A stretch of DNA of 64,000 nt, taken from assembly GCA_001785445.1 (NCBI GenBank), contig MFTV01000016.1, positions 6,259-70,258 on the forward strand, written 5' to 3'. The notes under the pieces were generated by a model. It was not told the origin of the DNA, made no database searches, and saw only the letters and a list, made by a program, of their open reading frames with translations. The stretch is from Candidatus Nomurabacteria bacterium RIFCSPHIGHO2_02_40_30. Its GTDB lineage: Bacteria; Patescibacteriota; Minisyncoccia; Phycocordibacterales; UBA9973. Below are positions 3,544-63,698 of the stretch, piece by piece. Every line of letters starts with the position of its first letter. Positions within the stretch are counted from its first letter, which is position 1. The translations under genes were made by a program, and so were the position numbers.

Positions 3544-3617
3544 ATTTTTAGTGTCCGTCCTCTTGGATTCGAACCAAGGACCCCAGAGGTATAAGCTCTG
3601 TGCTCTAACCAACTGAG
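3544..3617 (-). tRNA. tRNA-Ile with anticodon UAU
   Basis: Cloverleaf read by hand: acceptor CCGTCCT/AGGACGG, D arm GCTC-AGTTGGTTA-GAGC, anticodon stem CAGAG/CTCTG with loop CTTATAC (34-36 = TAT), T arm CTTGG-TTCGAAT-CCAAG, discriminator A. Confidence 0.7.
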
Positions 3618-3638
3618 CTAAGGACGGAAGATTGACTA

Positions 3639-5597: not shown

Positions 5598-6059
5598 ATG
5601 GTAAGATTAAATATGGCTCATTATGCGGAAAATAGAAAAGCGAGATTTGATTATGAAATTCTAGAAAAATACGAATCGGGTATTGAGCTTTTGGGTTCGG
5701 AAGTAAAGAGTGTGCGAGGGGGGCAAATGTCGCTTGAGGGAGCTTTTGTCATTGTTCGTGGAGGCGAATGTTTTTTAATCAATGCCAATGTTCCAGCCTA
5801 TCAACCTAAAAATGCGCCAAAGGATTATGACCCTTTGCGAAATAGAAAACTTTTGCTAACCAAAAAAGAAATTGCCGAACTGGCAGGCAGTGAAAAAAAC
5901 AAGAGTTTGACAATTGTGCCTATTTCAGTGTATAATAAAGGTAGAAAAATCAAAGTAGAAATTGCTTTGGTTAAAGGAAAAAAGAAACGCGACAAGCGTG
6001 AGACTATAAAAAAACGTGAGACTGATAGAGAAATCAGAAGAGAAATAAAAGAACGTTGA
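5598..6059 (+). CDS. smpB: SsrA-binding protein SmpB (true start may be Met at 5613)
   Basis: AENRKARFDYEILEKYESGIELLGSEVKSVR matches the SmpB N-terminal signature. Lys/Arg-rich C-terminal tail. Confidence 0.9.
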   Translation: MVRLNMAHYAENRKARFDYEILEKYESGIELLGSEVKSVRGGQMSLEGAFVIVRGGECFLINANVPAYQPKNAPKDYDPLRNRKLLLTKKEIAELAGSEKNKSLTIVPISVYNKGRKIKVEIALVKGKKKRDKRETIKKRETDREIRREIKER

Positions 6060-6070
6060 AAAATAAATTT

Positions 6071-6458
6071 GGGGATGCAAGGCATAGACAGTTGGTCTAT
6101 TTGCATTGATGCATACCGAGCATGAACATAACCTCGTAAAAATTTGTTCAAATGTTAATTGCAAAATTAGCTACTAAAGTGAAAAACGCTGTTTCTCCAT
6201 ACTTCGGTATGAATGACTTCGCTTTCGCTTCGGTTTCCGCTTACGCGTAACCGATGTCTCTCTTATAGACTTCCGATATATGAGATGGGGCATAATATTA
6301 TCGGGATAGGAGAAAGACTTTCCTGACTTTTTTCCAAAACAAAAGGAATCGATTAAAAAATATTTGGCTCGTTTCTTAATTTTTTAATTTAAACAAAAAG
6401 CGCGCTACGTATGTAGACTTCACTGCAAACTCCCTCTGCACTGGGATTCAATTTCCCA
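6071..6458 (+). ncRNA. ssrA: tmRNA (ssrA)
   Basis: 5' GGGGATG pairs with 3' CATCTCC (one G-U). tRNA-like T arm TGGGA-TTCAATT-TCCCA sits immediately before the acceptor 3' strand. Internal TGCATACCGAG...CCTCGTAAAAA resembles the conserved PK1/resume-region sequence of E. coli tmRNA. An alanine-rich tag frame ends ...FAFASVSAYA then TAA near 6246. Directly downstream of smpB. Confidence 0.7.
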
Positions 6459-6606
6459 CATCTCCACTCGACTCATTCTGTCTATGACAGAATTCGCTCG
6501 TGGCAAGCCACAGCGGAAAATACCCTGAAGAATTTGAAGGGTGTTTTGAGGCGAGTGCCCTGAGCGACGAGTTGAACGAGGAGTCGAATGGGCATATAAT
6601 CCTATT

Positions 6607-6879
6607 ATGTATTTTTTATATATGATCAAAAATGACTTTGGGAAATTGTATGTTGGTATTACTGAAAATCTAAAGGAAAGACTTTATTATCATAATTCGA
6701 AAACAGGAGCACAATTCACAAAAGGTAAAGCAAAATTCAGGTTAGTTTTTTCTGAAGAATATAACACCTTAGCAGAAGCTAGAAAAAGAGAAATTCAAAT
6801 CAAAAGATGGCGTAGAGATAAAAAGGAAAAATTAATCGATTTTTATGGTCAAAATATATCTACAAAATTGCAATTATGA
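6607..6879 (+). CDS. GIY-YIG nuclease superfamily protein (UPF0213/YhbQ-like)
   Basis: GKLYVGITENLKERLYYHN is a GIY-YIG motif. 90 aa. Confidence 0.75.
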   Translation: MYFLYMIKNDFGKLYVGITENLKERLYYHNSKTGAQFTKGKAKFRLVFSEEYNTLAEARKREIQIKRWRRDKKEKLIDFYGQNISTKLQL

Positions 6880-6889
6880 TGTTTGACAA

Positions 6890-7399
6890 CTATTTTTGAC
6901 TCAAGTGCCAAGCTGTTTCAGTGCTTTTCTTTACCCCTTCACCAAGGTTCTCACCAAGTTTTAAAAATTCATCAATTATTTCAACTTTAGTTTGTTCTTC
7001 TTCAATTTTTTTGTTACCCCACATTAACTCTTTAAATTTAAAATGAGCAATTTTATTTCTAGAATCGTTTAGCTTTTTTAAAAAATTTATAAAGGGTTTC
7101 CATTGTGGCACATCGCTTCCATACAATTCAGTCATTTTCTCCATAATTTTTATTTTCCCCATAAAACTAATTTCCTCAAACACATATTCAAAAAATTCAT
7201 CACTCTTTGGCATACCTCCTAGTTTTGCCCAATTAGAAAGTTCTACCCACATAGCGGTAGTGGCTATTTGTTTTTCACATAAACAGGTAAGCCAAAAAAT
7301 AAAATTAACTGTTTCTATTTCTTTCTTAGTAATAGATAATTTATCTTCCACAGCACCCATTAGTCCTTTCAAATATTCGCTTTCTTTTTCAGTTTCCAT
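6890..7399 (-). CDS. Hypothetical protein with HEPN/Abi_2-like R-x4-H motif
   Basis: 169 aa. C-terminal LNDSRNKIAHFKF fits the Rx4-6H HEPN signature seen in Abi-type proteins. No other family signal. Confidence 0.35.
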   Translation of the reverse strand: METEKESEYLKGLMGAVEDKLSITKKEIETVNFIFWLTCLCEKQIATTAMWVELSNWAKLGGMPKSDEFFEYVFEEISFMGKIKIMEKMTELYGSDVPQWKPFINFLKKLNDSRNKIAHFKFKELMWGNKKIEEEQTKVEIIDEFLKLGENLGEGVKKSTETAWHLSQK

Positions 7400-7568
7400 G
7401 GAATTTATGTTAGCACATTAACCTACTATTTAATACTTTTATTGTGAGTAGCTTTTTGCAGGTTTTTATTGTTCTGATAGAAAAACCAAAACATAACTAG
7501 GCAACCTTTTAAGCGGTTCAGCAAATTTTCCCTCTTCTCCACAAAACAAAAATGCTATAATTAAATAT

Positions 7569-8264
7569 ATGGTAATACCAACAGAGTACGCTTACTTATT
7601 TGCCACTCTCCTATTTTTGGTTTTTTGGCTGGTGCTTTTTTATCACAGAAAAGATTTAAGAAAAGAAATGCTTTTCATGAGCATATGCATAGCGATAGCC
7701 GGACTTTTTGCCGAATATTTCTGGTGGACGACAGACTGGTAGCGGCCAATTACTATCACAGGGACAAAGATAGGCATTGAAGACTTTTTACTCGGATTTA
7801 CCAATGGAGGCATTGCCGCAGTTATCTTCGAAGAAATTTTTAAGGAGAGATTTTATAAAAGAAAAAATTTAGAGCGCCACTGGTCAGGAGTTTTTTTAAT
7901 TATCTTAAATTTTACTATCATGGCCGGCAGTTTTTGGTATTTACACTATACTTCTTTTTGGGCTACTACTTTTGGACTATTCATTACTGGGTCTTTGATT
8001 ATATTTTTTAGACACGACTTATGGATAGATGCAGTGATGAGCGGAGTTTTGGTAGCAGTATTATTTCTGCCATTCTATTGGATTTTAATTTTAATTTCTC
8101 CGGAAGGAACCATGGAGAAAATCTGGCTCTTTGAACACTTAACTGGAATAAAAATAACTGGTGTCCCACTCGAAGACATAGTCTTTTACTTTCTAGTTGG
8201 TTTCTCTGTGGGTCCTTTTTATGCCTACTGGCAAGGAGAAAGACTAAGGGCTTTTAAATCCTAG
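7569..8264 (+). pseudogene. Lycopene-cyclase-domain membrane protein interrupted by an in-frame TAG at 7740-7742
   Basis: A single reading frame runs 7569-8264 with one internal amber codon. Two repeats of the PxEE-type motif (IGIEDFLLGF and GVPLEDIVFYFLVGF) occur on either side of the stop. Extended -10 (TGCTATAAT) upstream. Confidence 0.5.
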
Positions 8265-13405: not shown

Positions 13406-16189
13406 TTACTCCATACTCTTATACCTGCCCATGATTTCGGCTTCTACTTCGGCGCGGTCGCGACCGTATTTTATATAAGAAAGTTCTTTCAAGCTGTCTA
13501 CTATACCTACAGTACCCTTTTCAGGGGCTAAAGTTTTCAAATTAAAAGGCTTGGTCGGCTGGCCATTGACCAGCATGCTCATGTAGGCATTGTAATTATC
13601 AAGTTTAGTTATATCTTGGGCCGTAAATTGAGGCTTAAATTTCGGCTCGAGAAAACTCGCATCTTCAGTGCCCACGCGGAATACCGCCATAGAGCCGACA
13701 TTGCCGAAAACAGCATTTTTAATATTTTCTTCCAATTGGGTAATATATTGATGAGCAATGTTAAGAGAAAGCCTGTATTTGCGAGCTTCAGACAAGATAG
13801 AAGCAATAGAATCAGTGGTAACATTCTGGAATTCGTCAATGTATAAATAAAAATCATTCATGGGTTTACCGAACATATCCACGCGCGAGAGCGCCGCCAT
13901 TTGAATCTTGCCCACCAGCACCAAACCAATCAAATTCGCATTAATATCTCCGAGCCTGCCCTTGGAAAGATTAACCAAGAGAATCTTTTTCTCATCCATT
14001 ATTTTACGAAAATTAAAAACAGAGTTCTGCTGCAGCACTACCGGACGCATAATGTCGTTGGAAATAAAATTATCAAATTTTGAAGAAATATACGGCACGA
14101 AGTTTGCCAAAGACTGGTCGCCTGTCGTCTGTTCGGCCGAAACCCAGAATTGTTTGATGATAGGATTCTGGCATCTAGCTAATTTCAAATCTCGAAATTG
14201 TTTATCAGCCAGCACTCTGGTAATCTCTAAGAGAGTCGAGCCCGACTCCGGATCCTCCATTACCAGAAAGGCGCTGTTTCTGAAATATTGTTCGAACATT
14301 GCCCCGCCACCGACTTTCATATCAAAAAGTTTGTTGAAGATTCCCATCATTTCATTTACCACGAAAGTTTTCTGCTCCGGATATTTCGGATCATACTCAA
14401 GCATATTTAGCCCAATAGGACGAGCTGTATAAGCAGGGTCGAAATATATTACATCATCAATACGTTCTTTTGGAATTCGCGACAAAATAGTCTGAATGTC
14501 TGTGCCGTGCGGGTCAATATAACAGCAACCGTCACCATTCTTGATGTCCTGCGTAATCATATTGAGCATAATATTGGTCTTGCCGGTGCCCGTCTGGCCT
14601 ATGCAATAGAAATGCCGCATCCGGTCTTCCCGAGCCATGTGGATTTCCGTGTCTTTGCCTCGGTAACTATTAACCCCTAAGACTATGCCGGCAGTACCCA
14701 TCTCAAGTGGCGCAGGGGCAATACCAGCCTTGGCTTCTTTCAGTTGGGGCTGGCTGCCTATGCCTATAGGGAAATGAAATACCGAAGCCAGCTCTTTCAA
14801 ATTCATAGGTAAAATTTTATCAGGTGAAAAAGAACGGTAGGAAAAGTCATGGAAAAGTTTTTTCAAAATACTGCCCTGAGCTTTTTCGAAAACAAAAGAT
14901 TGACTGGCGGCTTCGGAAAATTGATTAAAGGAGGACTCTATCTCGGTTAGTATCGCTTCTGCCCGCTCAATGCTCTCACCGGAAGCAATGACGCGAATAT
15001 TAGCCTTCATGATAGTGCTTTTCATCTTATTGCCTATTTTTTCGGTGGCGCCTTCATCCACCGCTTTTCGGCCCGGAGTGTATTTTTCATCTTTTTCCCC
15101 CTTTTTTTCTTTTACACCAAAAAGAAGCTCTTTGCCAACGGAGAGGAAAGCTTTATGAAATTTATAAAAATTATCCGACGCATGTTTGACAGACATACCA
15201 CTTTTTACGTCATCTAGAATCATATGGAATTCGTTTATGAATTTATTGCCCGCGGGCGCCACTACGAGCTGGATCGCGGCGCCTTCGCCTTTGGTCTTTA
15301 ACTTAGAGAAAACATTTAGTATCGTATTCATGGGGTCATGATCTATATTGTCGTAAGTCTTGATAGGCATAACTTCACGCTGTGAGAATGCGCCATAGGC
15401 TCCAGCTGAACCGCCTTTTTCGTTAAAAATATTATAGTCATCCGTAACTTCGCGGATTTTAGCATTATGATAAAAAGCTAAAATTTGTTTTTCAAAAAGT
15501 GAAAGATGTTTATTCGGAATTCCGGCATAGACAACCACTTCATCACTTTGGTTGCCAAGCGCAACTTCAAGAGTGAAGTAAATTTCTTTGGCATTACTTT
15601 TGCCTTCGGAAATAGACTGCATTCCTGCGTAAAATTGCTCCATCGCGCCGATGAATTCTTTAAAGCCTTTTGACTTGTCGGCTTCGTCCATCGGTGGTGG
15701 CAAAGTTATTTCAAAAAGGGTCATATGCAGAGACTTATACATGGGTGTACCTTCCTTGAAACCAATTTCTACTTGACCTGTTTTAAGATACTGAATCAAG
15801 ATTCTATGGAAATCGTCATCCACATGCGGGTTACCCATGGATTCTACAACTGCAAGCGCATTTTTAACCCCTTTTGTTATGACAATACCCAGAAGTTCTT
15901 CCATCACAGCATCATGTGGCTCGGGTTTCAGAGCCAGAACTATGTCTTCTGTTTGTTTTTTTTCTAAAATACTATTTTTATGTATTACCTCTTCTATGGG
16001 TATATTCTTGTATGCGCCTACCACGTCCTGCACTGCATTGTCTTTGGCATTCTCAAAGTGGCCTAGTGTTACTAGTTCTTCTTCGCGCTTTCTAACATGC
16101 GCGCGCAAATAGTCGAGCTCTTCTTCTGGAGTCCTAAACTTCGGCATTTCCCTAAAAAATGACGGATGCATTGCTCTTAAATTATACAC
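13406..16189 (-). CDS. Large P-loop ATPase, VirB4/TraG/HerA (AAA_10/DUF87)-like C-terminal half with uncharacterised about 500-aa N-terminal half
   Basis: 927 aa. Walker A GQTGTGKTNIML, Walker B YLYIDEFQNV, distal ARKYRLSLNIAHQ motif typical of VirB4/TraG-type ATPases. Confidence 0.55.
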   Translation of the reverse strand: MYNLRAMHPSFFREMPKFRTPEEELDYLRAHVRKREEELVTLGHFENAKDNAVQDVVGAYKNIPIEEVIHKNSILEKKQTEDIVLALKPEPHDAVMEELLGIVITKGVKNALAVVESMGNPHVDDDFHRILIQYLKTGQVEIGFKEGTPMYKSLHMTLFEITLPPPMDEADKSKGFKEFIGAMEQFYAGMQSISEGKSNAKEIYFTLEVALGNQSDEVVVYAGIPNKHLSLFEKQILAFYHNAKIREVTDDYNIFNEKGGSAGAYGAFSQREVMPIKTYDNIDHDPMNTILNVFSKLKTKGEGAAIQLVVAPAGNKFINEFHMILDDVKSGMSVKHASDNFYKFHKAFLSVGKELLFGVKEKKGEKDEKYTPGRKAVDEGATEKIGNKMKSTIMKANIRVIASGESIERAEAILTEIESSFNQFSEAASQSFVFEKAQGSILKKLFHDFSYRSFSPDKILPMNLKELASVFHFPIGIGSQPQLKEAKAGIAPAPLEMGTAGIVLGVNSYRGKDTEIHMAREDRMRHFYCIGQTGTGKTNIMLNMITQDIKNGDGCCYIDPHGTDIQTILSRIPKERIDDVIYFDPAYTARPIGLNMLEYDPKYPEQKTFVVNEMMGIFNKLFDMKVGGGAMFEQYFRNSAFLVMEDPESGSTLLEITRVLADKQFRDLKLARCQNPIIKQFWVSAEQTTGDQSLANFVPYISSKFDNFISNDIMRPVVLQQNSVFNFRKIMDEKKILLVNLSKGRLGDINANLIGLVLVGKIQMAALSRVDMFGKPMNDFYLYIDEFQNVTTDSIASILSEARKYRLSLNIAHQYITQLEENIKNAVFGNVGSMAVFRVGTEDASFLEPKFKPQFTAQDITKLDNYNAYMSMLVNGQPTKPFNLKTLAPEKGTVGIVDSLKELSYIKYGRDRAEVEAEIMGRYKSME

Positions 16190-41769: not shown

Positions 41770-42264
41770 TTAGTCTTCGTCTATTCCAGAAATATAAAGT
41801 CTTTGATCATAAGGCATTACACTCCAAAATATTATATGGCCGTCACCTACTTGTTTTATGATAATTTTTATTTTATGTTTTTTGTCACTCAAGATGGCGT
41901 GAAAACCCCAATATTGAACTTGCTTCATTTTATAAAAACCACTCTGTTGCGGTTTGCCATACTTTTCTATTTGTATCCTATATTCTTGAAGAGTTCCACA
42001 TTTAGGAATTATTTCTACTGCTTTTTTTATAAGTATAAGCTTTAGTGTCTGTTCTTTTATATTTCTTGGAACACGATTAGGCTTATATTGAAGATGGTTG
42101 AACCCATCTGAATTTAGAATTATCTTAGCTTGAAAATATGGACAATAAATTTCTTTGTTGGTTTCGTAAATTAATTTTGCTTTTTCGTGAACACTCTTAA
42201 AATCTTTCATAGCAAAAAGTATAACATAAAAAATGAGAACTAAAAAAAATGAGGAAAAAGACAC
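41770..42264 (-). CDS. Hypothetical protein (164 aa, N-terminal TM anchor), cargo of the rpmB-3' insertion
   Basis: GTG start per ORF track. No recognised family. Confidence 0.45.
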   Translation of the reverse strand: MSFSSFFLVLIFYVILFAMKDFKSVHEKAKLIYETNKEIYCPYFQAKIILNSDGFNHLQYKPNRVPRNIKEQTLKLILIKKAVEIIPKCGTLQEYRIQIEKYGKPQQSGFYKMKQVQYWGFHAILSDKKHKIKIIIKQVGDGHIIFWSVMPYDQRLYISGIDED

Positions 42265-42289
42265 CTACGCCACTCTCCTCAAAGCCGGA
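42264..42289. repeat. 26-bp direct repeat, copy 2
   Basis: Would give an alternative L28 C-terminus ...KAGLV-stop if joined to the rpmB body. Confidence 0.9.
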
Positions 42290-42308
42290 CTGGTTTAAAA
42301 CCAGTAAA

Positions 42309-43631
42309 CTATTTTACGTTAATTGTTTCTATAATTTTCTCTATCTCTTTTTCATAACTTTCGTAATCTGGGTATGTTGCCTCTACTCTCAAAATACTAA
42401 TATTATTTGCTACAGTTTCGTAATGAACAGATTCGTTTGATTCTTTTTTTTCTTTCCGTTTATAAAATTCGTATTTACCAATTTTGATTAATTGTGTATT
42501 TGGGGGACGATTTTTTACTACGGCTTCAATAGAACTACTATCATTAAACTTGGTCAACGAGATGACTGCCTGAAATGGATCCTGAATAAGATATAGACTC
42601 ATGGATACTTCGTCCCTAGCCTGCTCATAAAGCTTATAAACTGAAGAATAATTAAATGAAACAAAATAGCTATCAAAAAATTTTACAGAACTGGCATCTT
42701 GTTGAATAAAACCAGTTTTTGGATCAACTATATAACGTCTATGATTTTTTATACTCATCAAACACTGTTCTTCCGTATGCGAAATAAGTTGATTTGTTTC
42801 ACAGAAATTTGGATCTATATATTTCCAATACCTTGAAGAATCCATAGAAAATAGTTCAGTCTCTGTAATTGGAACACTTTTGTCAATTTGGTTATACACT
42901 TTCAATTTACAGAGTTTATTAAATTCTTCACCCGGCTTAACTGAAGCAATCATTCTATTACTAAAATCTGGACCTTCTAAATACTTAATACCAACTAATT
43001 TATATAGAACGTTCAATTTTTTCTTAGTAACCAAAAAACTATCATGAAACTCAAAGAGTATTACACCAGTATTTTTTAAATATTTTTCACCACTCTTATT
43101 ATCAAATTCTTCTTTCAAAATATCTGGGTCGGTTGAAATTCCCAAAGTCGTACTTTTGAGAATTTCTTTGTTGCCATAAACTGGAATGGTGATTTGCTTG
43201 CCATCAGAAGTACTAAGTATACGATTACTATCATTACTATCTTGTGTATAACCTAAATTATATTCACATAATTTCTGTTCACCTATTCCGCCAAGGATTG
43301 CTAAAATAAGTATAATAATTAAAGAAACAACAAATTTATATCTTATGTTAAGTTTATCGACGATATAATAAAGAATTCCAGAAAGTTTATAAAATAAGAC
43401 TAACATTAAAATAACCCCAGGGATAATAGTGATGGGGTTAGGTAAACCGGGAAAGTAACCACCAGTTAAAAAAAGCTCTGGAAGAAAGTAAAACGGAAAC
43501 CAAAAAATATGCAAGAGAAAATCCAACGAAGGATTCCAGAAATATATTGACCACGGGGAAAAATAATAAAAAGTAAGAAATATTGGCAAAACTGATAGGA
43601 AAAATATTCCTTTAGTTTTTATCTTGTCCAT
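42309..43631 (-). CDS. Hypothetical membrane protein (4 N-terminal TM, large extracytoplasmic domain)
   Basis: 440 aa, Lys/Asn/Tyr-rich. No recognisable domain. Confidence 0.55.
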   Translation of the reverse strand: MDKIKTKGIFFLSVLPIFLTFYYFSPWSIYFWNPSLDFLLHIFWFPFYFLPELFLTGGYFPGLPNPITIIPGVILMLVLFYKLSGILYYIVDKLNIRYKFVVSLIIILILAILGGIGEQKLCEYNLGYTQDSNDSNRILSTSDGKQITIPVYGNKEILKSTTLGISTDPDILKEEFDNKSGEKYLKNTGVILFEFHDSFLVTKKKLNVLYKLVGIKYLEGPDFSNRMIASVKPGEEFNKLCKLKVYNQIDKSVPITETELFSMDSSRYWKYIDPNFCETNQLISHTEEQCLMSIKNHRRYIVDPKTGFIQQDASSVKFFDSYFVSFNYSSVYKLYEQARDEVSMSLYLIQDPFQAVISLTKFNDSSSIEAVVKNRPPNTQLIKIGKYEFYKRKEKKESNESVHYETVANNISILRVEATYPDYESYEKEIEKIIETINVK

Positions 43632-43652
43632 GATTAGTATTTTATCATAGAT

Positions 43653-44954
43653 TTACGCTGGCACGAAGGTCAGGGCTGTGCCAGCTTTGCCGGAGCGGCC
43701 AGTGCGGCCGATGCGATGCACGTAGGTATCGTAGGTTTGTGGCACATCATAGTTTATGACATGAGTCACATCAGGAATGTCTAGCCCCCTAGCTGCCACA
43801 TCTGTCGCAATCAGTATATTTATTTTGTCCTGCTTGAAAGAGTCCAATATGCGGATGCGTTCTCGGCTTCTTTTATCACCATGAATGCCGCCCACTTTGA
43901 AGCCCATATGAGAAAGTTCTTTGGCTAGTGTATCTACGCTGTGTTTCATCTCACGGAAAATTAAAACTTTGTCCGAGCCGTCTTTTTTCAAAACTTCATG
44001 AAGTTTTTCTAATTTTTCTTCTTTACTTCTGGTACGAATCACATCTTGGTGGATGTTTTTTGCTGTTTCCCCAGAAATTACGGAAATAAACGCAGGATTT
44101 TTCAAATATTGTTCGGTTAACTTTTTAATTTCCGGAGAAAGTGTAGCAGAGAAGAAAAGTGTCTGCCTTTCTTTATTGGTTTTGCCGATTATGTAAATCA
44201 TGTCGTCACGAAAGCCCATGTCGAGCATACGGTCAGCCTCGTCTAGCACCACGCTGTGGCATGTCGAGAGGTCGAGAATTTTTTTCTCTATTAGGTCGCG
44301 AAGTCTTCCTGGAGTTCCGATGACGAAAGACACACCAAGTTTTATTTCACGGATTTGCTTCATAATAGGCAGACCTCCTACGCATGCTACAGAAAACATC
44401 CCGAACCCGAATGCAAGATTTTTAAAATCAGATTCTATCTGCAGTGCCAGCTCGCGAGTCGGCGCCATGATAAGAATCATTTCTCTTTTATTCTGTCCTC
44501 TGGTCTTTGCAACTTTCTCAATCAACGGTAAAAGAAATGCTGCAGTCTTGCCGGTACCGGTATTGGCCATACCGAAAACATCCCTGCCCTCGAGTATTGT
44601 AGGAATGGATTGGTCTTGAATCGGACGTGGATGAACATAGCCTGCTTTCGAAATATTTTTATGTAGTTGAGCATTAAAAGGAAAATTAGCAAAAGTATGT
44701 TTCGACACATAAGGCTTTTCTTCTACATGAGTTCCCTTCTTTATGAAACGAGAAAAATCTATTCTCTCTCCACGAGAACGCTTGTTACTACTTGGTCGTC
44801 TATTTCCGCCACTCTTAAAACCACCACTTTTGAAAGTAGGCCTAGAAGTATTGCTGTATATTCTTTTTGTTCCTCCACCAAAACTAGGTTTAGTTTTAAA
44901 AGCAGAAGTGTGATTGCCGAATTTCTTCGGAGAAGCCGAATGAGTTTTGTACAT
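43653..44954 (-). CDS. DEAD-box ATP-dependent RNA helicase
   Basis: Q motif, GTGKTAAF, VLDEADRMLDMGF, HRIGRTGR. Gly/Ser/Arg-rich N-terminal tail. Confidence 0.9.
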   Translation of the reverse strand: MYKTHSASPKKFGNHTSAFKTKPSFGGGTKRIYSNTSRPTFKSGGFKSGGNRRPSSNKRSRGERIDFSRFIKKGTHVEEKPYVSKHTFANFPFNAQLHKNISKAGYVHPRPIQDQSIPTILEGRDVFGMANTGTGKTAAFLLPLIEKVAKTRGQNKREMILIMAPTRELALQIESDFKNLAFGFGMFSVACVGGLPIMKQIREIKLGVSFVIGTPGRLRDLIEKKILDLSTCHSVVLDEADRMLDMGFRDDMIYIIGKTNKERQTLFFSATLSPEIKKLTEQYLKNPAFISVISGETAKNIHQDVIRTRSKEEKLEKLHEVLKKDGSDKVLIFREMKHSVDTLAKELSHMGFKVGGIHGDKRSRERIRILDSFKQDKINILIATDVAARGLDIPDVTHVINYDVPQTYDTYVHRIGRTGRSGKAGTALTFVPA

Positions 44955-58020: not shown

Positions 58021-58446
58021 TTATACACCAAAAATAGAAAAAAGAAAAATACAAAGACAAATAACTGCGGAGACTATGCACCAAGAGCATCCTTTTTTTA
58101 ATATAAAAATTTGTACCCCAAGAAGATAAATTGAAAAAAGAAAAGCTCCAAAAGTTATCAGTACTAAAAAACTAGAAAAGACAACTGGGATAATGTCAGA
58201 TATAAAGATAGAAAATAGATAGAAAATAGATAGAAAAGCATAATAAATCATGCCAAAAATTTCCAGTGGCACATGCATGAATTCAGAATAATTACTGTGA
58301 ATCACAGCATGGCAGTCAAATCCTACTGGACAAACCAGGATTTTATTAGCCTTTTTATGTTTATGGATACGCCTAGCCACCCAAAACCCGCATAAACCTA
58401 GAACAAAAATAATTATCCGTATTAAAGTGTCATCTGGAAATTGCAT
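58021..58446 (-). CDS. Vitamin K epoxide reductase (VKOR) family protein
   Basis: Loop cysteines (CPVGFDC) and CSWC redox motif in the last TM. Confidence 0.65.
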   Translation of the reverse strand: MQFPDDTLIRIIIFVLGLCGFWVARRIHKHKKANKILVCPVGFDCHAVIHSNYSEFMHVPLEIFGMIYYAFLSIFYLFSIFISDIIPVVFSSFLVLITFGAFLFSIYLLGVQIFILKKGCSWCIVSAVICLCIFLFSIFGV

Positions 58447-58473
58447 GGGTAGAGTATACTAGTAATTCTTTAA

Positions 58474-60231
58474 TTAACCAAATGTGAAAGTAAAAACTTG
58501 CATACCCCCTTTTTTAATTTTTAACATAAGTGTATGCTCTTCGTAATCTATTCCTTGAATAATTTTATAAAGCATTTCACTTTTAATGAAAATTGTTCTA
58601 TCTAATTTTCCGTCAATAAAAATTTCAATCTCGGCTTCTGTTTTAGAACTGGCAACCATATATACATTTTTTGCTTTATATTTGAAAACAACACTTCCCC
58701 CACCGAAATTTTCCGCATATTCGGCAGTTATAGACCATGCTCCACCCAAGTAAAGATTATTTATTTTTATCTCATCTGGAATGGTTAAATTTTGGGTGCC
58801 AGAAATACCAGCATTGCCATTGGACAGCCTCTCATTTCGCGTTGAGCCAAAGTAAATTTCCGGACTGCCTATACCACTAAACAAAACTTCTATCTTATTT
58901 GCTGGATTTGAAATATCTAGCGGCATTGTGTCTGCGTTGCCTAATTTATAACTCCTTTCTTGCAATGCTTTCTGTATTTCTTTTTCTGTTTCTGTGTATT
59001 TTCCTTCTCCCGCATGGTCGTAAATAATATAGCCGTCTATGTCAATCAGGTACTTACGCGGCCAGTATTGGTTTTTATACGCCTGCCAAGTGGAAAAATC
59101 GTTATCTAGCACAACAGGATATTTGATACTAAAATCTTTAACCGCTTCTTCTACATTTTTCAAAATCCTTTCAAAAGAGAATTCTGGAGTATGCAGACCT
59201 ATAATTACTAGCCCCTTGTCCTCATACTTCTTATGCCATTCATTCAGATACGGTATTGTTCTTTGGCAGTTAATACAACTGTAAGTCCAAATATCGAGCA
59301 ATACCACTTTTTTGCCCTTGAACTCTGAAATAGTAATAGGTTTATTGTCGGTATTTATATAACCATCAATGGAGCTTAGGTCTGGCGCCAAAATAAATTT
59401 TTTGCTTTTCTGTTCAGGAGTTAGAAAATTGTTTTTACCTTGTTCTTCTTCAGGTTTTTCAGTTTTAAGTTCTATTACAGTTTTATCTTCTAAATTTGTT
59501 TGTGAATTTAAGTCTAGTAAATTCTGTTCTACTTTAGTAACATCAAAAAACCCCGCATCCAGAAGAGAAATTTGCAGTTGTTTGTCATAACCGGTAAGTA
59601 TGCCAAGACTGACCAAGATAAAAATTACGCCTAGAGTCCTTTTAAACCAGCCATATGGATCTAGGGTAAAATTTAGTTTGTTCATAATTCTTTGGCCCAA
59701 AATTGACACAAGTAGAAGCGCCAAGCACAAGCCGACAGTGTAAGTAAAAAGATAAAGTATTCCCACTGCCGGTCGCACCGGCAGCACAGTTGCAAGAATT
59801 ACAAAATAAGTCGGGCTACAAGCCGAAAAAATAGGGCCAAGAGATGCGCCGACAATTATATCCCCCCAGATGTCATTTCTCTGATAACCACTCATCAGAA
59901 CTTTATTTCCCCCTGTATTTAGCCTCCAAACAAAAGGTAAGTTCTCCCAAAGGTTTGGGAAAAGAGTAACAAGACCGAAAATAAAAATTATTCCGCCTGA
60001 TATATATTTCCAAAAGTCTTGCGGAATATTTACAAAAAAAGTACTGACTTTAAGAATTAAAGTAAAAAGAATAACTGAAATACCAAGAGATGTAATTACT
60101 ACAAACACCCTTCTTTGACTTAGAGTGGGGTCAGATAAAGAACGCCCGACAATTACTGGCAATAGCGGCAGTATGCACGGCGCCAAAATTGTAAGTACAC
60201 CAGCGACAAAAGATATAATAAAAAACGCCAT
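58474..60231 (-). CDS. DsbD/CcdA-type thiol-disulfide transporter fused to thioredoxin-like domain
   Basis: N-terminal CcdA-like TM core (APCILPLLP). C-terminal Trx fold with CINC motif. Confidence 0.7.
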   Translation of the reverse strand: MAFFIISFVAGVLTILAPCILPLLPVIVGRSLSDPTLSQRRVFVVITSLGISVILFTLILKVSTFFVNIPQDFWKYISGGIIFIFGLVTLFPNLWENLPFVWRLNTGGNKVLMSGYQRNDIWGDIIVGASLGPIFSACSPTYFVILATVLPVRPAVGILYLFTYTVGLCLALLLVSILGQRIMNKLNFTLDPYGWFKRTLGVIFILVSLGILTGYDKQLQISLLDAGFFDVTKVEQNLLDLNSQTNLEDKTVIELKTEKPEEEQGKNNFLTPEQKSKKFILAPDLSSIDGYINTDNKPITISEFKGKKVVLLDIWTYSCINCQRTIPYLNEWHKKYEDKGLVIIGLHTPEFSFERILKNVEEAVKDFSIKYPVVLDNDFSTWQAYKNQYWPRKYLIDIDGYIIYDHAGEGKYTETEKEIQKALQERSYKLGNADTMPLDISNPANKIEVLFSGIGSPEIYFGSTRNERLSNGNAGISGTQNLTIPDEIKINNLYLGGAWSITAEYAENFGGGSVVFKYKAKNVYMVASSKTEAEIEIFIDGKLDRTIFIKSEMLYKIIQGIDYEEHTLMLKIKKGGMQVFTFTFG

Positions 60232-60233
60232 AA

Positions 60234-60704
60234 CTATTTTTTAATTTCAGAAACAAGTGAAAGGAGTGTGGGACTACCGCTCCATTTTTTTATCAGATTC
60301 CCATCTTTATCTACTTGCACCAAAGTATGCTGATAGGTTACCCCGTATTTTCTCTTTAGTTCACTTGAATTATCGTAGTCCACATCAAGGATGGTGAGAC
60401 TTTCCGGAATATTATTCGCCTTGATATCAGCATCTAGAGCCCTACAAGTCGGACACCAAGAGGCTCGGAAAAATAAAACTACATTATCAGCATTCTTTTG
60501 CATAGCAACTTTTTCTGCACTGTACGCCACGTAAGAATCAGATGCCGTCATTGTATCAACTTCATTCTTCATAGAACTCTTTTCTTTTAGTGTTCCCATG
60601 TTTGTTTTCACTGTTTCTTCTTCTTTTGAATTACCAGAAAAAAGAACACTCCCTCCAATGAGTGCTAAAACAACCAAAATGCAAATAATAATTTTTTGAT
60701 TCAC
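60234..60704 (-). CDS. Secreted thioredoxin-like protein (WCPTC)
   Basis: Signal peptide and FFRASWCPTC active site. Confidence 0.75.
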   Translation of the reverse strand: MNQKIIICILVVLALIGGSVLFSGNSKEEETVKTNMGTLKEKSSMKNEVDTMTASDSYVAYSAEKVAMQKNADNVVLFFRASWCPTCRALDADIKANNIPESLTILDVDYDNSSELKRKYGVTYQHTLVQVDKDGNLIKKWSGSPTLLSLVSEIKK

Positions 60705-60862: not shown

Positions 60863-61285
60863 TTACTCTGCAACTTTTTCTTCTGTTTCTGTGTCTAGGG
60901 TAGATGAGCGCATCTTGCGACGAACATCTTTGACTGCCTTAGTGCGAATATAGTAAAGCTTTGACCTCTTGGCATGAGACTTTTTAGTCGTTTCAATTTT
61001 GTCTATCATTGGAGAGTATAATGGAAAGATTCTTTCCACTCCGACGCCTGAAGCCACTTTGCGTACAGTAAAAGTTGCGCCAATTTCTTTGCCATGTTTT
61101 CGTCCGAGCACCATGCCCTCAAAAGCCTGCAAGCGATATTTGCTTGCCCCGCCCTTGGCGGGGCTTTTTTCGTCTAAAATTTTGGACGAAACACGCACCA
61201 CATCACCGGCTCTAAAATCAAGCTTGGCGCGAGCCTCCATGTCTACTGGACTAAGTTTAATATTGCCAATCTTATTTCCTGTCAT
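60863..61285 (-). CDS. rplS: 50S ribosomal protein L19
   Basis: FTVRKVASGVGVERIFPLYSPMIDKIE. Confidence 0.9.
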   Translation of the reverse strand: MTGNKIGNIKLSPVDMEARAKLDFRAGDVVRVSSKILDEKSPAKGGASKYRLQAFEGMVLGRKHGKEIGATFTVRKVASGVGVERIFPLYSPMIDKIETTKKSHAKRSKLYYIRTKAVKDVRRKMRSSTLDTETEEKVAE

Positions 61286-61324: not shown

Positions 61325-63031
61325 TTAAGAAACCTCTTCTTGATAACACTTTTCGCAGTATACTATCTCTAGTCTTTCGGGCGCGTAAGAAGTTTTTATG
61401 GGAGTACTGCATTTCATACAGATACGATCGTAAAGCTTTGGCAGTTGAATTTTACCAAAACGTTCTTTGTATCTACACTCTGGGCAGCTTCTCGGTATAG
61501 GAAGATTAAATTTTCGCAAGAAAGAAAGCTCATTGGGCACAATTTTGAAACCTCTTTTGCAAATAGCGCACTCTATAGTATCTTCTAGAATGCTATCTGA
61601 TACATTGTTTATCATATCCGGCAAATCTTCTGCTTTTATCGTAATTGTATAGACCGGCTTCTCGGATTCAAACCAAGTAAATCCTTTTTGTAATGCTTGA
61701 CTTTCATTTAATGGAAAATATTCTTGCGCCATTGTTTCATTGTAGCCAAATGGCGATATTATCGTAGGGAAAAATTCTCCATATTTATATACCCCGCCTT
61801 TTTCATCTACATATGGATTTTTATCCATGTCAGAAATAATTTTAGCTTTTAGTTTCTCATATTCTTCTTTTGAGTACTCTTTATTTAAAATACAATATTG
61901 TTTCTTCTTGAGATTTATACAGCCAAAAGAATTTTTACAGCCATTAATGGCATACGTGCAGTATTCCAGATTCATTGCATTTGGAAAACACTCATCGCTA
62001 AAACGACAATTCGAAGCTCCTTCACCAACAATACTACACTCATAAATCTTTTCTGAGTTGTTGCCCCAGCCAGTATAATCATAGGCGTCTTTAGTCTTGG
62101 GTAGTGTCAAAAATTGAGCAAATCGAGTATCTTCTGCACCTGAACATATATATACATCGTGAGCATTTTTTGACTGAAAAACATATTCACCAGTAATATT
62201 TTTGTTTCGACTATCTCCCCTATAAAACCTACGTGGAAATTGTAAGGAAAAATTTTCTAATTCTTTTAAAGTTGATTGAACAGTCTGCCATGAAGCCATG
62301 TTAATCTCGACCATTTTTTCCTTGTATTCTTCTTTAGTGTATTGAACATTCCAAATACAATAATTTTTCTTGCGAAGGTTTACACAACCAAAACAATTGG
62401 AGCAATCAAAACAATTTCTGGAAAAATACACATCATGACAATCTCCACAATCAATAGTGAAATGACAATTATACAATTTGTGTCCACCAATAGACCCATA
62501 ACAAAGTTCAGATTCATGTAGATAATAACAGTCTACACAGTCACGAATTTTAGCTAACATCATGCTATAAAGAGAATTTTCTACGTAATCAGCATAGTAA
62601 GTAAAGTAAGAATTTTTCTGCCAACCTGTAAAATTTGTGTAGGGAGTGTTAATATTTGAAGTGTAGGTGCATTGAAGCGCCATATAAGGAGTTTGGTGTG
62701 TTAATTCTTCCATTTGTTCAAAAAAAGTTCTTGATGGATCATAATCCATTCCATATTCAGTCCCATCCCAAGTATCTCCCCACCAGCAAGGATTGCAATA
62801 AACTTTTATTTTCTTTTCATTAGGGTACATTGAGATTACACTTTTTCCACAAAGATCACATAGTCTTTTATAAAGTGTGCGCACATTTAAAAAAGAAAGA
62901 CGCCTTATCAACCGGCATTCCGAACACCAAGTCGGTGGCGGGACTTTCATTTTTTTGTAGAAATTAAAATCTTCCGATTCTAGGGTGAAGTCTTTTTTGC
63001 AGTTCTGGCATTTTTTAGTCTCTGCTTCCAT
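61325..63031 (-). CDS. Cysteine-rich multi-zinc-ribbon protein, unknown function
   Basis: 568 aa. Similar CxxC-x(17-20)-CxxCR...CxxC...YCxxC modules at both termini. Central internally duplicated Cys cluster (KNYCIWNVQYTKEEYKEKM vs KQYCILNKEYSKEEYEKLK). Confidence 0.55.
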   Translation of the reverse strand: MEAETKKCQNCKKDFTLESEDFNFYKKMKVPPPTWCSECRLIRRLSFLNVRTLYKRLCDLCGKSVISMYPNEKKIKVYCNPCWWGDTWDGTEYGMDYDPSRTFFEQMEELTHQTPYMALQCTYTSNINTPYTNFTGWQKNSYFTYYADYVENSLYSMMLAKIRDCVDCYYLHESELCYGSIGGHKLYNCHFTIDCGDCHDVYFSRNCFDCSNCFGCVNLRKKNYCIWNVQYTKEEYKEKMVEINMASWQTVQSTLKELENFSLQFPRRFYRGDSRNKNITGEYVFQSKNAHDVYICSGAEDTRFAQFLTLPKTKDAYDYTGWGNNSEKIYECSIVGEGASNCRFSDECFPNAMNLEYCTYAINGCKNSFGCINLKKKQYCILNKEYSKEEYEKLKAKIISDMDKNPYVDEKGGVYKYGEFFPTIISPFGYNETMAQEYFPLNESQALQKGFTWFESEKPVYTITIKAEDLPDMINNVSDSILEDTIECAICKRGFKIVPNELSFLRKFNLPIPRSCPECRYKERFGKIQLPKLYDRICMKCSTPIKTSYAPERLEIVYCEKCYQEEVS

Positions 63032-63035
63032 GAGA

Positions 63036-63698
63036 TTATTTTATCATCTTTTTAAACTCTGCTGGTACGGATGATTCCACTTTTACAATTTTGCCTTTTA
63101 AGTTTTTAAATTCTATAGATCTGGCGTGAAGTGCTAGACGTGAGATGCCTTTAGGACAAGGGCCATTTGGGTTGTAAAGCGAATCACAGGCGACAGGATA
63201 GTTTAAGAATTTCATATGCACACGGATCTGATGCGTGCGGCCAGTTTTAGGTTTAATCTCAAGATAAGTAAATTTTTCTTTTTGACTAAAGAATCTCTTA
63301 AGAATCTTATACTCTGTAACAGCTTCTCTCATCTCTCCTCTTGCTCCTCGGCCGGCCAGATGCCGACGGAAATCTTTCGGGCTTCTGCCTATAGGCTTAT
63401 TTATAACCCCTCGATCATTTTTTACCCAGCCATTTACAATAGCAATATAAGTTTTCTTCACTTCCCTGTTCGCAAACTGTTGCTTTAAAAATTCGTGAGC
63501 TTTGCGATTTTTAGCTAAAAGCATAACTCCGGAAGTTTCTTTATCTAGTCTATGCACTAATTCGATTTTAGGATATTTTTTTAAAAACAAATCAAGAATA
63601 GTTTTTTCCTTTGTTCTTTGGTCTCCATGCACTAAAATACCAGATGGTTTTTCAATCGCTAAAATATTAACATCTTCGTACAAAACTTTTATTTTCAT
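63036..63698 (-). CDS. RluA-family pseudouridine synthase
   Basis: HRLDKETSGVMLLAK catalytic-Asp motif. Confidence 0.9.
   Translation of the reverse strand: MKIKVLYEDVNILAIEKPSGILVHGDQRTKEKTILDLFLKKYPKIELVHRLDKETSGVMLLAKNRKAHEFLKQQFANREVKKTYIAIVNGWVKNDRGVINKPIGRSPKDFRRHLAGRGARGEMREAVTEYKILKRFFSQKEKFTYLEIKPKTGRTHQIRVHMKFLNYPVACDSLYNPNGPCPKGISRLALHARSIEFKNLKGKIVKVESSVPAEFKKMIK

Follow-up and report, generated by a model that had tools for sequence, protein, structure and literature searches.

Within a 64,000-nt stretch of contig MFTV01000016.1 from Candidatus Nomurabacteria bacterium RIFCSPHIGHO2_02_40_30 (hereafter, the window), we analyzed a gene for a cysteine-rich protein of 568 aa, here called X. 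An earlier sequence-only reading of the same DNA had described this open reading frame (ORF) as encoding a zinc protein located between an RluA-family pseudouridine synthase gene and rplS. The ORF and its location hold: the ORF list gives a complete minus-strand frame of 568 codons plus stop that begins with ATG, and its two neighbors are recognizable by Pfam matches to PF00849 and PF01245 (Table 1). The rluA stop lies 4 nt before the X start, rplS starts 39 nt past the end of X, and no minus-strand terminator-like site was found between the three genes. The window holds one copy of X, whose sequence contains 36 Cys, fewer than the about 40 originally counted, along with 12 CxxC motifs and 6 His. 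In brief, our analysis depicts X as a member of a large Paceibacteria family with a predicted core of two beta-solenoids clamped by zinc fingers, and tentatively as a binding scaffold or adaptor.

X is a genuine gene, since its homologues far exceed what chance would produce. A word-indexed search returned at least 6,861 of them. Of the best 120, nearly all span the full length, at 50 to 76% identity; most of these 120 measure 565 to 570 aa, share 50 to 55% identity with X, and are labeled hypothetical or "CxxC-x17-CxxC domain-containing." One public protein (P0001) is 100% identical to X, and the 90% cluster of X is made up of "hypothetical protein" entries from Candidatus Nomurabacteria, e.g., KKR02301.1. 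An exhaustive profile search of 1.84 billion cluster representatives yielded 4,797 clusters (50% identity) at E ≤ 1e-3 and 1,982 at E ≤ 1e-30, with nearly all of those listed being 550 to 600 aa long. Among GTDB species genomes (one genome per species) there are at least 577 relatives, and every informatively named one is of the Paceibacteria type, that is, Nomura-, Jorgensen-, Staskawicz-, Giovannoni-, Niyogi-, or Sungii-bacteria, Paceibacterota, Parcubacteria, or Minisyncoccia. The TPA labels "uncultured Saccharibacteria" and, once, "Gammaproteobacteria" are probably unreliable. Because X is absent from phage and plasmid collections, with one partial match in IMG/VR, we dropped the idea that it might be a phage or mobile-element gene. 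As whole proteins, family members are acidic to neutral, with a mean pI of 6.3. A distant member, P0230 (731 aa), has a GNAT acetyltransferase domain fused to its N terminus and has lost several finger Cys, a single case that could be a gene-calling artifact. Literature searches on the X family, CxxC-x17-CxxC, zf_Tbcl, DUF8128, and cysteine-rich Paceibacteria proteins found no account of the family, and a metatranscriptome paper on Paceibacteria does not mention it (PMC10936435).

Curated collections offered few clues. A Pfam search at E values up to 10 gave sub-threshold finger matches plus noise (EF1G) and left residues 90 to 480 uncovered, NCBIfam and PADLOC returned no match, and the PDB sequences, queried with full-length X, yielded noise only and no related sequence. 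The one match in PHROGs was weak (E = 2.5e-5, residues 164 to 225) and led to phrog_15341, a family of unknown function. The earlier reading had seen no enzymatic motif in X, and we recognized none either; nor did a radical-SAM, ferredoxin, or other characterized family turn up in Pfam (E ≤ 10), NCBIfam, or the PDB sequences.

Structure prediction was more informative. An AlphaFold2 (AF2) model computed from 150 diverse family sequences reached a predicted local distance difference test score (pLDDT) of 91.7 and a predicted template modeling score (pTM) of 0.92, with no segment below a pLDDT of 50; it replaced an earlier run on 30 close orthologues, which had reached a pLDDT of 70.9 and was poor in the solenoids. 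The pTM of 0.92 argues that X is one rigid body, not beads on a string, and the model predicts two terminal treble-clef modules flanking two duplicated, narrow beta-solenoids. X has no signal peptide, no transmembrane (TM) segment, and no N-terminal hydrophobic segment, and is predicted to be cytoplasmic.

Table 1. Features of X, its neighbors, and related genes; positions are those of the window unless a related locus (L number) is given, and residue (res) numbers refer to the encoded protein
Feature	Position	Strand	Evidence or remark
X, cysteine-rich protein, complete CDS	61325..63031	-	568 codons plus stop, ATG start; ORF list
N-terminal double treble-clef module (predicted), res 1-90	62762..63031	-	Sequence; AF2 secondary structure
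Connector, res 91-135, WDGTEY...DPSRPFxEQ motif and helix 103-113	62627..62761	-	Alignments A1 and A2; AF2
Beta-solenoid 1 (predicted), res ~136-232, Cys/Ser ladder, closing motif FGCxNLRxKxYCIxN, cap helices 233-262	62246..62626	-	
Beta-solenoid 2 (predicted), res 263-387, duplicate of solenoid 1 with fewer Cys, cap helix 388-404	61817..62245	-	Internal repeat
Middle region, acidic, conserved, res 406-483, NPYxD..G..YGEFFP..SPFxYNE[ST]xA...W	61583..61816	-	Conservation; pLDDT 90-98; family mean net charge -5.7
C-terminal double treble-clef module (predicted), res 484-568	61328..61582	-	Nearly gap-free alignment with N-terminal module; PF23477 match
RluA-family pseudouridine synthase, upstream of X	63036..63698	-	PF00849, E 2.5e-34; junction sequence
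Ribosomal protein L19 (rplS), downstream of X	60863..61285	-	PF01245, E 5e-29; junction sequence
Soluble VirD4/TraG-like ATPase, 927 aa, long N-terminal extension (~500 aa)	13406..16189	-	PF12696 and PF10412 at res 518-838
CutA1 sites in related loci	L003 5720-6025; L019 2491-3225; L027 3434-4158; L032 4275-5017; L055 8506-8817		

At the two termini, a common module had been noticed in the letters, and it is readily confirmed: residues 4 to 83 and 484 to 563 align without a gap over 80 residues at 31% identity (E = 1e-17, a value which, like that for the central repeat, was computed against a single subject sequence). The consensus proposed for the module also holds in a nearly gap-free alignment of 14 N-terminal and 14 C-terminal copies taken from orthologues, where 10 columns are invariant (8 Cys, 1 Pro, and the Arg that follows the second CxxC). 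Each copy comprises two fingers. In the N-terminal module, C8,C11/C36,C39 (spacer x24) are followed by a basic helix, CRxxRR, and then by C58,C61/C79,C82 (spacer x17); their C-terminal counterparts are C488,C491/C516,C519 (x24) and C538,C541/C559,C562 (x17). Both modules are mildly basic. The modeled topology runs beta-hairpin, helix, helix, beta-hairpin, helix, with the CxxC pairs in hairpin turns and at helix N termini. In the N-terminal copy the hairpins span residues 4-7/14-17 and 54-57/64-67 and the helices begin at residues 37 and 80, all at a pLDDT of ~95, and the C terminus looks alike. The fingers had been called zinc ribbons; repeated CxxC zinc modules they remain, but the hairpin knuckle plus helix N terminus of the model is that of a treble clef, giving four predicted Cys4 sites in total.

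Conservation speaks for these sites. Each of the four terminal Cys quartets is kept or lost whole among the 150 homologues, and because of this all-or-none pattern we read them as real metal sites. CCCC occurs in the first N-terminal finger of 143 sequences (individual Cys 96 to 99% conserved) and in the second C-terminal finger of 144 (97 to 99%). The second N-terminal finger reads CCCC in 89, Cxxx in 37, and xxxx in 20 sequences, and it is lost as a unit in ~40% of the paralogues. Two Pfam finger families come close to X without reaching their cut-offs, PF23477 (zf_Tbcl_2) at residues 533 to 565 (E = 7e-4, 19.6 bits versus 27) and PF13451 (zf_Tbcl) at residues 5 to 43 (14.8 bits versus 24), and several close homologues carry precomputed matches to one or the other. 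Small archaeal proteins that are otherwise unrelated to X but have a CxxC-x17-CxxC domain were found to bind zinc by inductively coupled plasma mass spectrometry (PMC12704099). Judged by this combination of sequence and analogy, the predicted zinc binding by the terminal fingers is well, if indirectly, supported, as the sequence-only reading had proposed.

The fingers resemble zf_Tbcl and zf_Tbcl_2 in having paired CxxC motifs 17 to 24 residues apart and, in the model, the same hairpin-knuckle and helix topology. The known examples, however, are single small domains, whereas X would combine two unlike fingers in an 85-residue module and use this module twice. A profile search of the PDB with the terminal module produced only marginal matches (E = 1e-3 to 7e-3), in which the second finger of the module resembles the second finger of LIM domains such as those of CRP1 and CRP2. 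Both are tandem treble clefs, but LIM fingers lie 2 residues apart and use C2HC/C4 ligands, while those of X lie 18 apart and are all-Cys, and the match is confined to one finger. LIM domains serve protein-protein docking.

The center of X was described earlier as an internally duplicated Cys cluster. The duplication is real (residues 139 to 243 versus 288 to 398, 34% identity over 111 columns), and KNYCIWNVQYTKEEYKEKM and KQYCILNKEYSKEEYEKLK, the two endings quoted earlier, occur at residues 222 to 240 and 377 to 395, respectively; the Cys themselves look like a ladder in a beta-solenoid core rather than a metal-site motif. Cys in solenoid 1 have a frequency of 0.378 in one mod-3 register, compared with 0.005 and 0.002 in the other two. 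The ladder consists of 19 consecutive positions (162 to 216) filled by Cys, Ser, or small hydrophobic residues, and the non-ladder repeat positions are dominated by D/N/E and Y/F/V rather than by Thr. AF2 renders solenoid 1 as a run of very short strands (E--E--EEEE) and solenoid 2 as more irregular. Across the 150 homologues the central Cys are lost piecemeal, being exchanged for Ser, Val, Leu, or Thr, and we therefore read the ladder as core packing and not as an iron-sulfur (Fe-S) or metallothionein-like site. An Fe-S identity of the ferredoxin or radical-SAM kind is not supported: neither Fer4 nor Radical_SAM matched at E ≤ 10, the sole dense motif is CxxCxxCxxC (residues 207 to 216), and the Cys are not conserved as a set. 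At positions 207/210/213/216, the patterns among the 150 sequences are CCCC (95), xCCC (15), CCCx (14), CxCC (6), and others, and solenoid 2 has Ile and Ser where solenoid 1 has C207 and C213. X has no conserved His, each of its six being kept in ≤11% of the 150 homologues.

The closing motif of solenoid 2, FGCxNLKxKxYCILNKxYSKEEY, includes the most conserved block of the family (residues 381 to 390), with N383 and Y386 invariant in 150 of 150 sequences. At and after the end of the N-terminal module, D86, W88, F103, and Q106 are conserved to ≥90% in alignments A1 and A2, and the connector is modeled at a pLDDT of 93 to 98 for residues 91 to 120 and of ~89 for residues 121 to 135. The lowest conservation among the 150 sequences is found at residues 111-135, 181-200, 241-280, 291-310, 331-360, and 451-470.

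When the model was compared with known structures, left-handed beta-helix (LbH) proteins (GlmU, LpxD, gamma-carbonic anhydrase [gamma-CA], and PglB) were the most frequent weak matches. The likeness lies in the short-strand solenoids predicted for X, built of 3- or 6-residue units; unlike the LbH enzymes GlmU, LpxD, and gamma-CA, X lacks the hexapeptide signature (PF00132 type, Pfam E ≤ 10) and a conserved His. Cysteine-containing beta-solenoids are also known from ice-binding proteins, namely, the spruce budworm antifreeze protein (1m8n) and the ryegrass ice-binding protein (3ult), but these are secreted, disulfide bonded, and have Thr-rich faces, whereas X is predicted to be cytoplasmic, has no signal peptide or TxT arrays, and shares 7 to 9% sequence identity with them. 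The model thus portrays the core of X as a narrow, short-coil beta-solenoid with no significant relative among solved structures or curated families, and we rate the whole as known kinds, i.e., treble-clef fingers and a beta-solenoid, joined in an unprecedented predicted architecture.

For clues to function, we turned to genomic context and clustered all ORFs in 84 related loci of ~10 kb each, a sample whose members are phylogenetically nonindependent. These loci contain 197 family genes; 52 of the 84 hold two to seven copies, almost always head-to-tail on the same strand. In Paceibacteria JTS-AC38, loci L009, L025, and L032 comprise at least 7 copies, and numbers in a roughly 1-Mb genome range up to at least 7 to 9 paralogues; in relatives, the family takes up to ~12 to 15 kb of such genomes. 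The only strongly recurrent neighbor from outside the family is an FtsK/HerA-superfamily ATPase resembling VirD4/TraG/TrwB, a homologue of type IV coupling proteins (T4CPs), with 42 genes in 28 of the 84 loci. Typical cassettes have short intergenic gaps and come in two orders: one reads T4CP-long, X, X, T4CP-short, and optionally DnaJ; the other reads (sigma70_r4/HARE-HTH), DUF8128-type, a 174-aa protein, T4CP-short, (CutA1, cytidylyltransferase), a variable number of X genes, and T4CP-long. The small CutA1 ("divalent ion tolerance") genes repeatedly sit between T4CP-short and X paralogues, in several loci together with the cytidylyltransferase-like partner (Table 1).

The two ATPase forms differ in length, T4CP-short having ~490 aa and T4CP-long ~690 to 750 aa. 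The long form adds a zf_Tbcl_2 finger (49 to 53 bits versus the Pfam cut-off of 27) and then a disordered, K/E/P-rich tail of ~200 residues that ends in a conserved C-terminal VPEDVLRK[VI]LE (L060 2854-4986; L027 6779-9034; alignment A4). This tail recalls the partner-binding tails of conjugative coupling proteins such as TraD. Neither form has a TM-like segment, and for this reason we do not regard them as classical membrane coupling proteins. In a reciprocal scan of 80 loci seeded on T4CP-long, X was adjacent in 12. For the subgroup with the C-terminal EDVLxKxLE motif, X adjoined 6 of the 7 complete genes. The finger itself was rejected as a predictor of X adjacency, as most T4CP relatives carry it with or without X.

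In the more distant loci of the reciprocal scan (L086 to L165, e.g., L116 to L160), a same-strand DUF8128-type gene mostly lies directly upstream of the ATPase, and in most of these ATPases the catalytic domain is followed by a CxxC...CxxC finger. DUF8128-type plus T4CP appears as a conserved two-gene module that is independent of X and very widespread in metagenomic loci. The ATPase family that flanks X arrays is represented in the window by a 927-aa ORF (Table 1), which has no TM-like segment and shares 36% identity (tblastn) with the ATPase beside X in L003. Within phrog_5156, the ATPases of related loci align with the C-terminal half and the stand-alone DUF8128-type protein with the N-terminal part; by analogy, the 927-aa ORF may be a fusion of the DUF8128-type and T4CP genes.

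A recent survey of Patescibacteria counted 5,713 VirD4-like T4CPs in this group, 148 of them near virB4, and suggested exaptation without naming a partner (PMC12102498). The ATPases flanking X arrays belong to the same family as these orphans. X is no ATPase and does not figure in that study, which does not describe a link of T4CPs to a cysteine-rich family or to DUF8128-type proteins.

As a tentative explanation, possible rather than probable, we propose that X is a non-enzymatic scaffold or adaptor, stabilized by zinc, that serves soluble VirD4-like ATPases. On this proposal, X would be neither an enzyme nor an Fe-S protein. The flat solenoid faces, which are most variable between paralogues, would be recognition surfaces, and the mildly basic terminal fingers with their CRxxRR helix would dock on a partner or on nucleic acid. 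The machinery would be the pair of soluble VirD4/TraG-like ATPases that bracket tandem X arrays, with the X paralogues as interchangeable adaptors or clients of the ATPase motor. The X gene of the window would then be the single "core" copy, probably cotranscribed with rluA and rplS because this is a site where arrays are seeded and not because of a shared function.

Several points weigh against this proposal. The ATPase link is one of synteny alone, seen in 28 of 84 X loci and 12 of 80 T4CP-centered loci. The loci are not independent, and a hot spot of lineage-specific expansion could account for the genes being neighbors. X is not an obligate partner, given that a DUF8128-type gene accompanies most T4CP relatives instead. 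Within the window, X lies in a housekeeping operon, 47 kb from the only T4CP-like gene. Finally, a core orthologue kept at 50 to 55% identity across the class would also fit a housekeeping role unrelated to the ATPase.

A bolder version of the adaptor proposal, and a doubtful one, would unite X, the soluble VirD4-like ATPases, and the DUF8128-type partner in a Paceibacteria-specific machine, a hexameric FtsK/HerA-type motor with interchangeable solenoid adaptors or cargos. Such a machine might act in interactions with the host, or handle nucleic acids or proteins that have been acquired.

The gene order around X had originally hinted at a role with RNA or the ribosome. According to this alternative, which we consider rather unlikely, the treble-clef fingers would bind rRNA, tRNA, or ribosomal particles, and X would work with RluA and L19 in assembling ribosomes or modifying RNA, perhaps in place of biogenesis factors missing from bacteria of the candidate phyla radiation (CPR). 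The 4-nt and 39-nt spacing without an intervening terminator-like site favors it, as do the mildly basic terminal modules with their invariant Arg after the second CxxC and the conservation of the core orthologue at about housekeeping level. The synteny does recur: the order RluA-X-L19 was seen in eight loci (L001/L002, L006, L010, L011, L013, L015, and L069), and L19 alone follows X in two more (L037 and L073). However, these ten loci of 84 all hold close X orthologues, and in four of them (L010, L015, L069, and L073) extra divergent paralogues are inserted upstream of the orthologue, between RluA and L19 where RluA is present, which speaks for a site of insertion or duplication and against operon logic. 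Other orthologues at ≥50% identity adjoin T4CP ATPases or sit in arrays (L003, L004, L005, and L019), and across the family the recurring surroundings are tandem arrays and VirD4-like ATPases. Counts of up to at least 7 to 9 paralogues in a roughly 1-Mb genome would be unusual for a ribosome factor, X overall is acidic to neutral, and the tiny CPR genomes place translation genes beside nearly everything. Thus, the synteny can be found again in close relatives, but the functional hint taken from it is not borne out.

We next consider X as secreted cargo, an unlikely scenario in which diversified paralogues would be effectors, passed by the VirD4-like ATPases to Patescibacteria's type IV secretion system (T4SS) and delivered into host cells. 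T4SS genes occur widely among Patescibacteria, and Saccharimonadia cannot grow epibiotically without them (PMC12102498), which lends the idea some appeal, as does the location of tandem, diverging X arrays next to T4CP homologues, the long form of which has the TraD-like combination of disordered tail and conserved C-terminal peptide. Yet these homologues lack TM-like segments, just 148 of the 5,713 T4CPs lie near virB4, and in the sole genetic study the T4CP was nonessential (PMC12102498). Among the neighbor clusters of the 84 loci no virB4-type gene was recurrent, though no virB4-specific test was made. In addition, a tightly folded protein with four predicted zinc sites would be hard to unfold for translocation, and effectors typically show far less conservation than the core orthologue does.

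Could the cysteines themselves be the point? X might be a metal-thiolate store or redox buffer, its Cys ladder holding extra zinc, copper, or iron or buffering thiols. The Cys are indeed dense and in strict register, occupying about a third of solenoid 1 positions in many paralogues, and the complete CxxCxxCxxC in 95 of 150 sequences would suit such a role. A small further hint comes from CutA1, whose gene lies directly beside X in L003 and whose cluster appears in eight further loci. We nevertheless hold this explanation to be improbable, as ladder Cys are individually replaceable, solenoid 2 has Ile and Ser in place of C207 and C213, AF2 folds the ladder region confidently without metal, and no Fer4 or metallothionein Pfam match was found.

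Very improbable, finally, is an LbH enzyme (acyltransferase or gamma-CA-like) with zinc-finger appendages, which the weak structural matches and the GNAT fusion of P0230 might suggest, but which is at odds with the missing Hexapep match even at E values up to 10, with the absence of a conserved His among the six of X, and with the fact that the fusion was seen once. The probability left over from the adaptor proposal and these four alternatives goes to something else.

The family deserves attention for several reasons. A large part of bacterial diversity belongs to the Patescibacteria (CPR), which have tiny genomes and carry much conserved gene content that is unexplained. X is a case in point, a family at 50 to 55% identity across a whole class, whose 390-residue core is modeled in neither Pfam nor NCBIfam, and carried in databases essentially as "hypothetical protein." Its predicted architecture, with four treble-clef zinc sites clamping twin solenoids of which the first has a period-3 Cys ladder, is unusual, making it relevant to structural biology as well as to CPR biology. 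The adjacency to soluble VirD4-like ATPases, which have been flagged as possibly exapted, is a testable lead that extends to the DUF8128-type partner. If true, a machine of X, ATPase, and DUF8128-type protein would supply thousands of "orphan" T4CPs of Patescibacteria with partners and define a new architecture. Even should the ATPase link fail, the family would merit structure determination and metal analysis.

Other parts of the window are worth a brief mention. Downstream of rplS and a tRNA-Leu gene, a minus-strand cluster of extracytoplasmic thiol-redox genes (58021-60704) encodes an exported thioredoxin, a 585-aa fusion of CcdA/DsbD_TM, thioredoxin-like, and Thioredoxin_10 domains, and a VKOR homologue. 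We rejected it as linked to X, since rplS and the tRNA lie between and since such genes do not recur among the neighbor clusters of the 84 loci. GC content is lowest at 6001-8000 (0.34) and 42001-44000 (0.33), compared with ~0.40 elsewhere. At 3553-3627, the minus strand carries a tRNA-Ile with anticodon TAT; in most bacteria AUA is decoded by a lysidine-modified CAT tRNA, and this tRNA is hence unusual.

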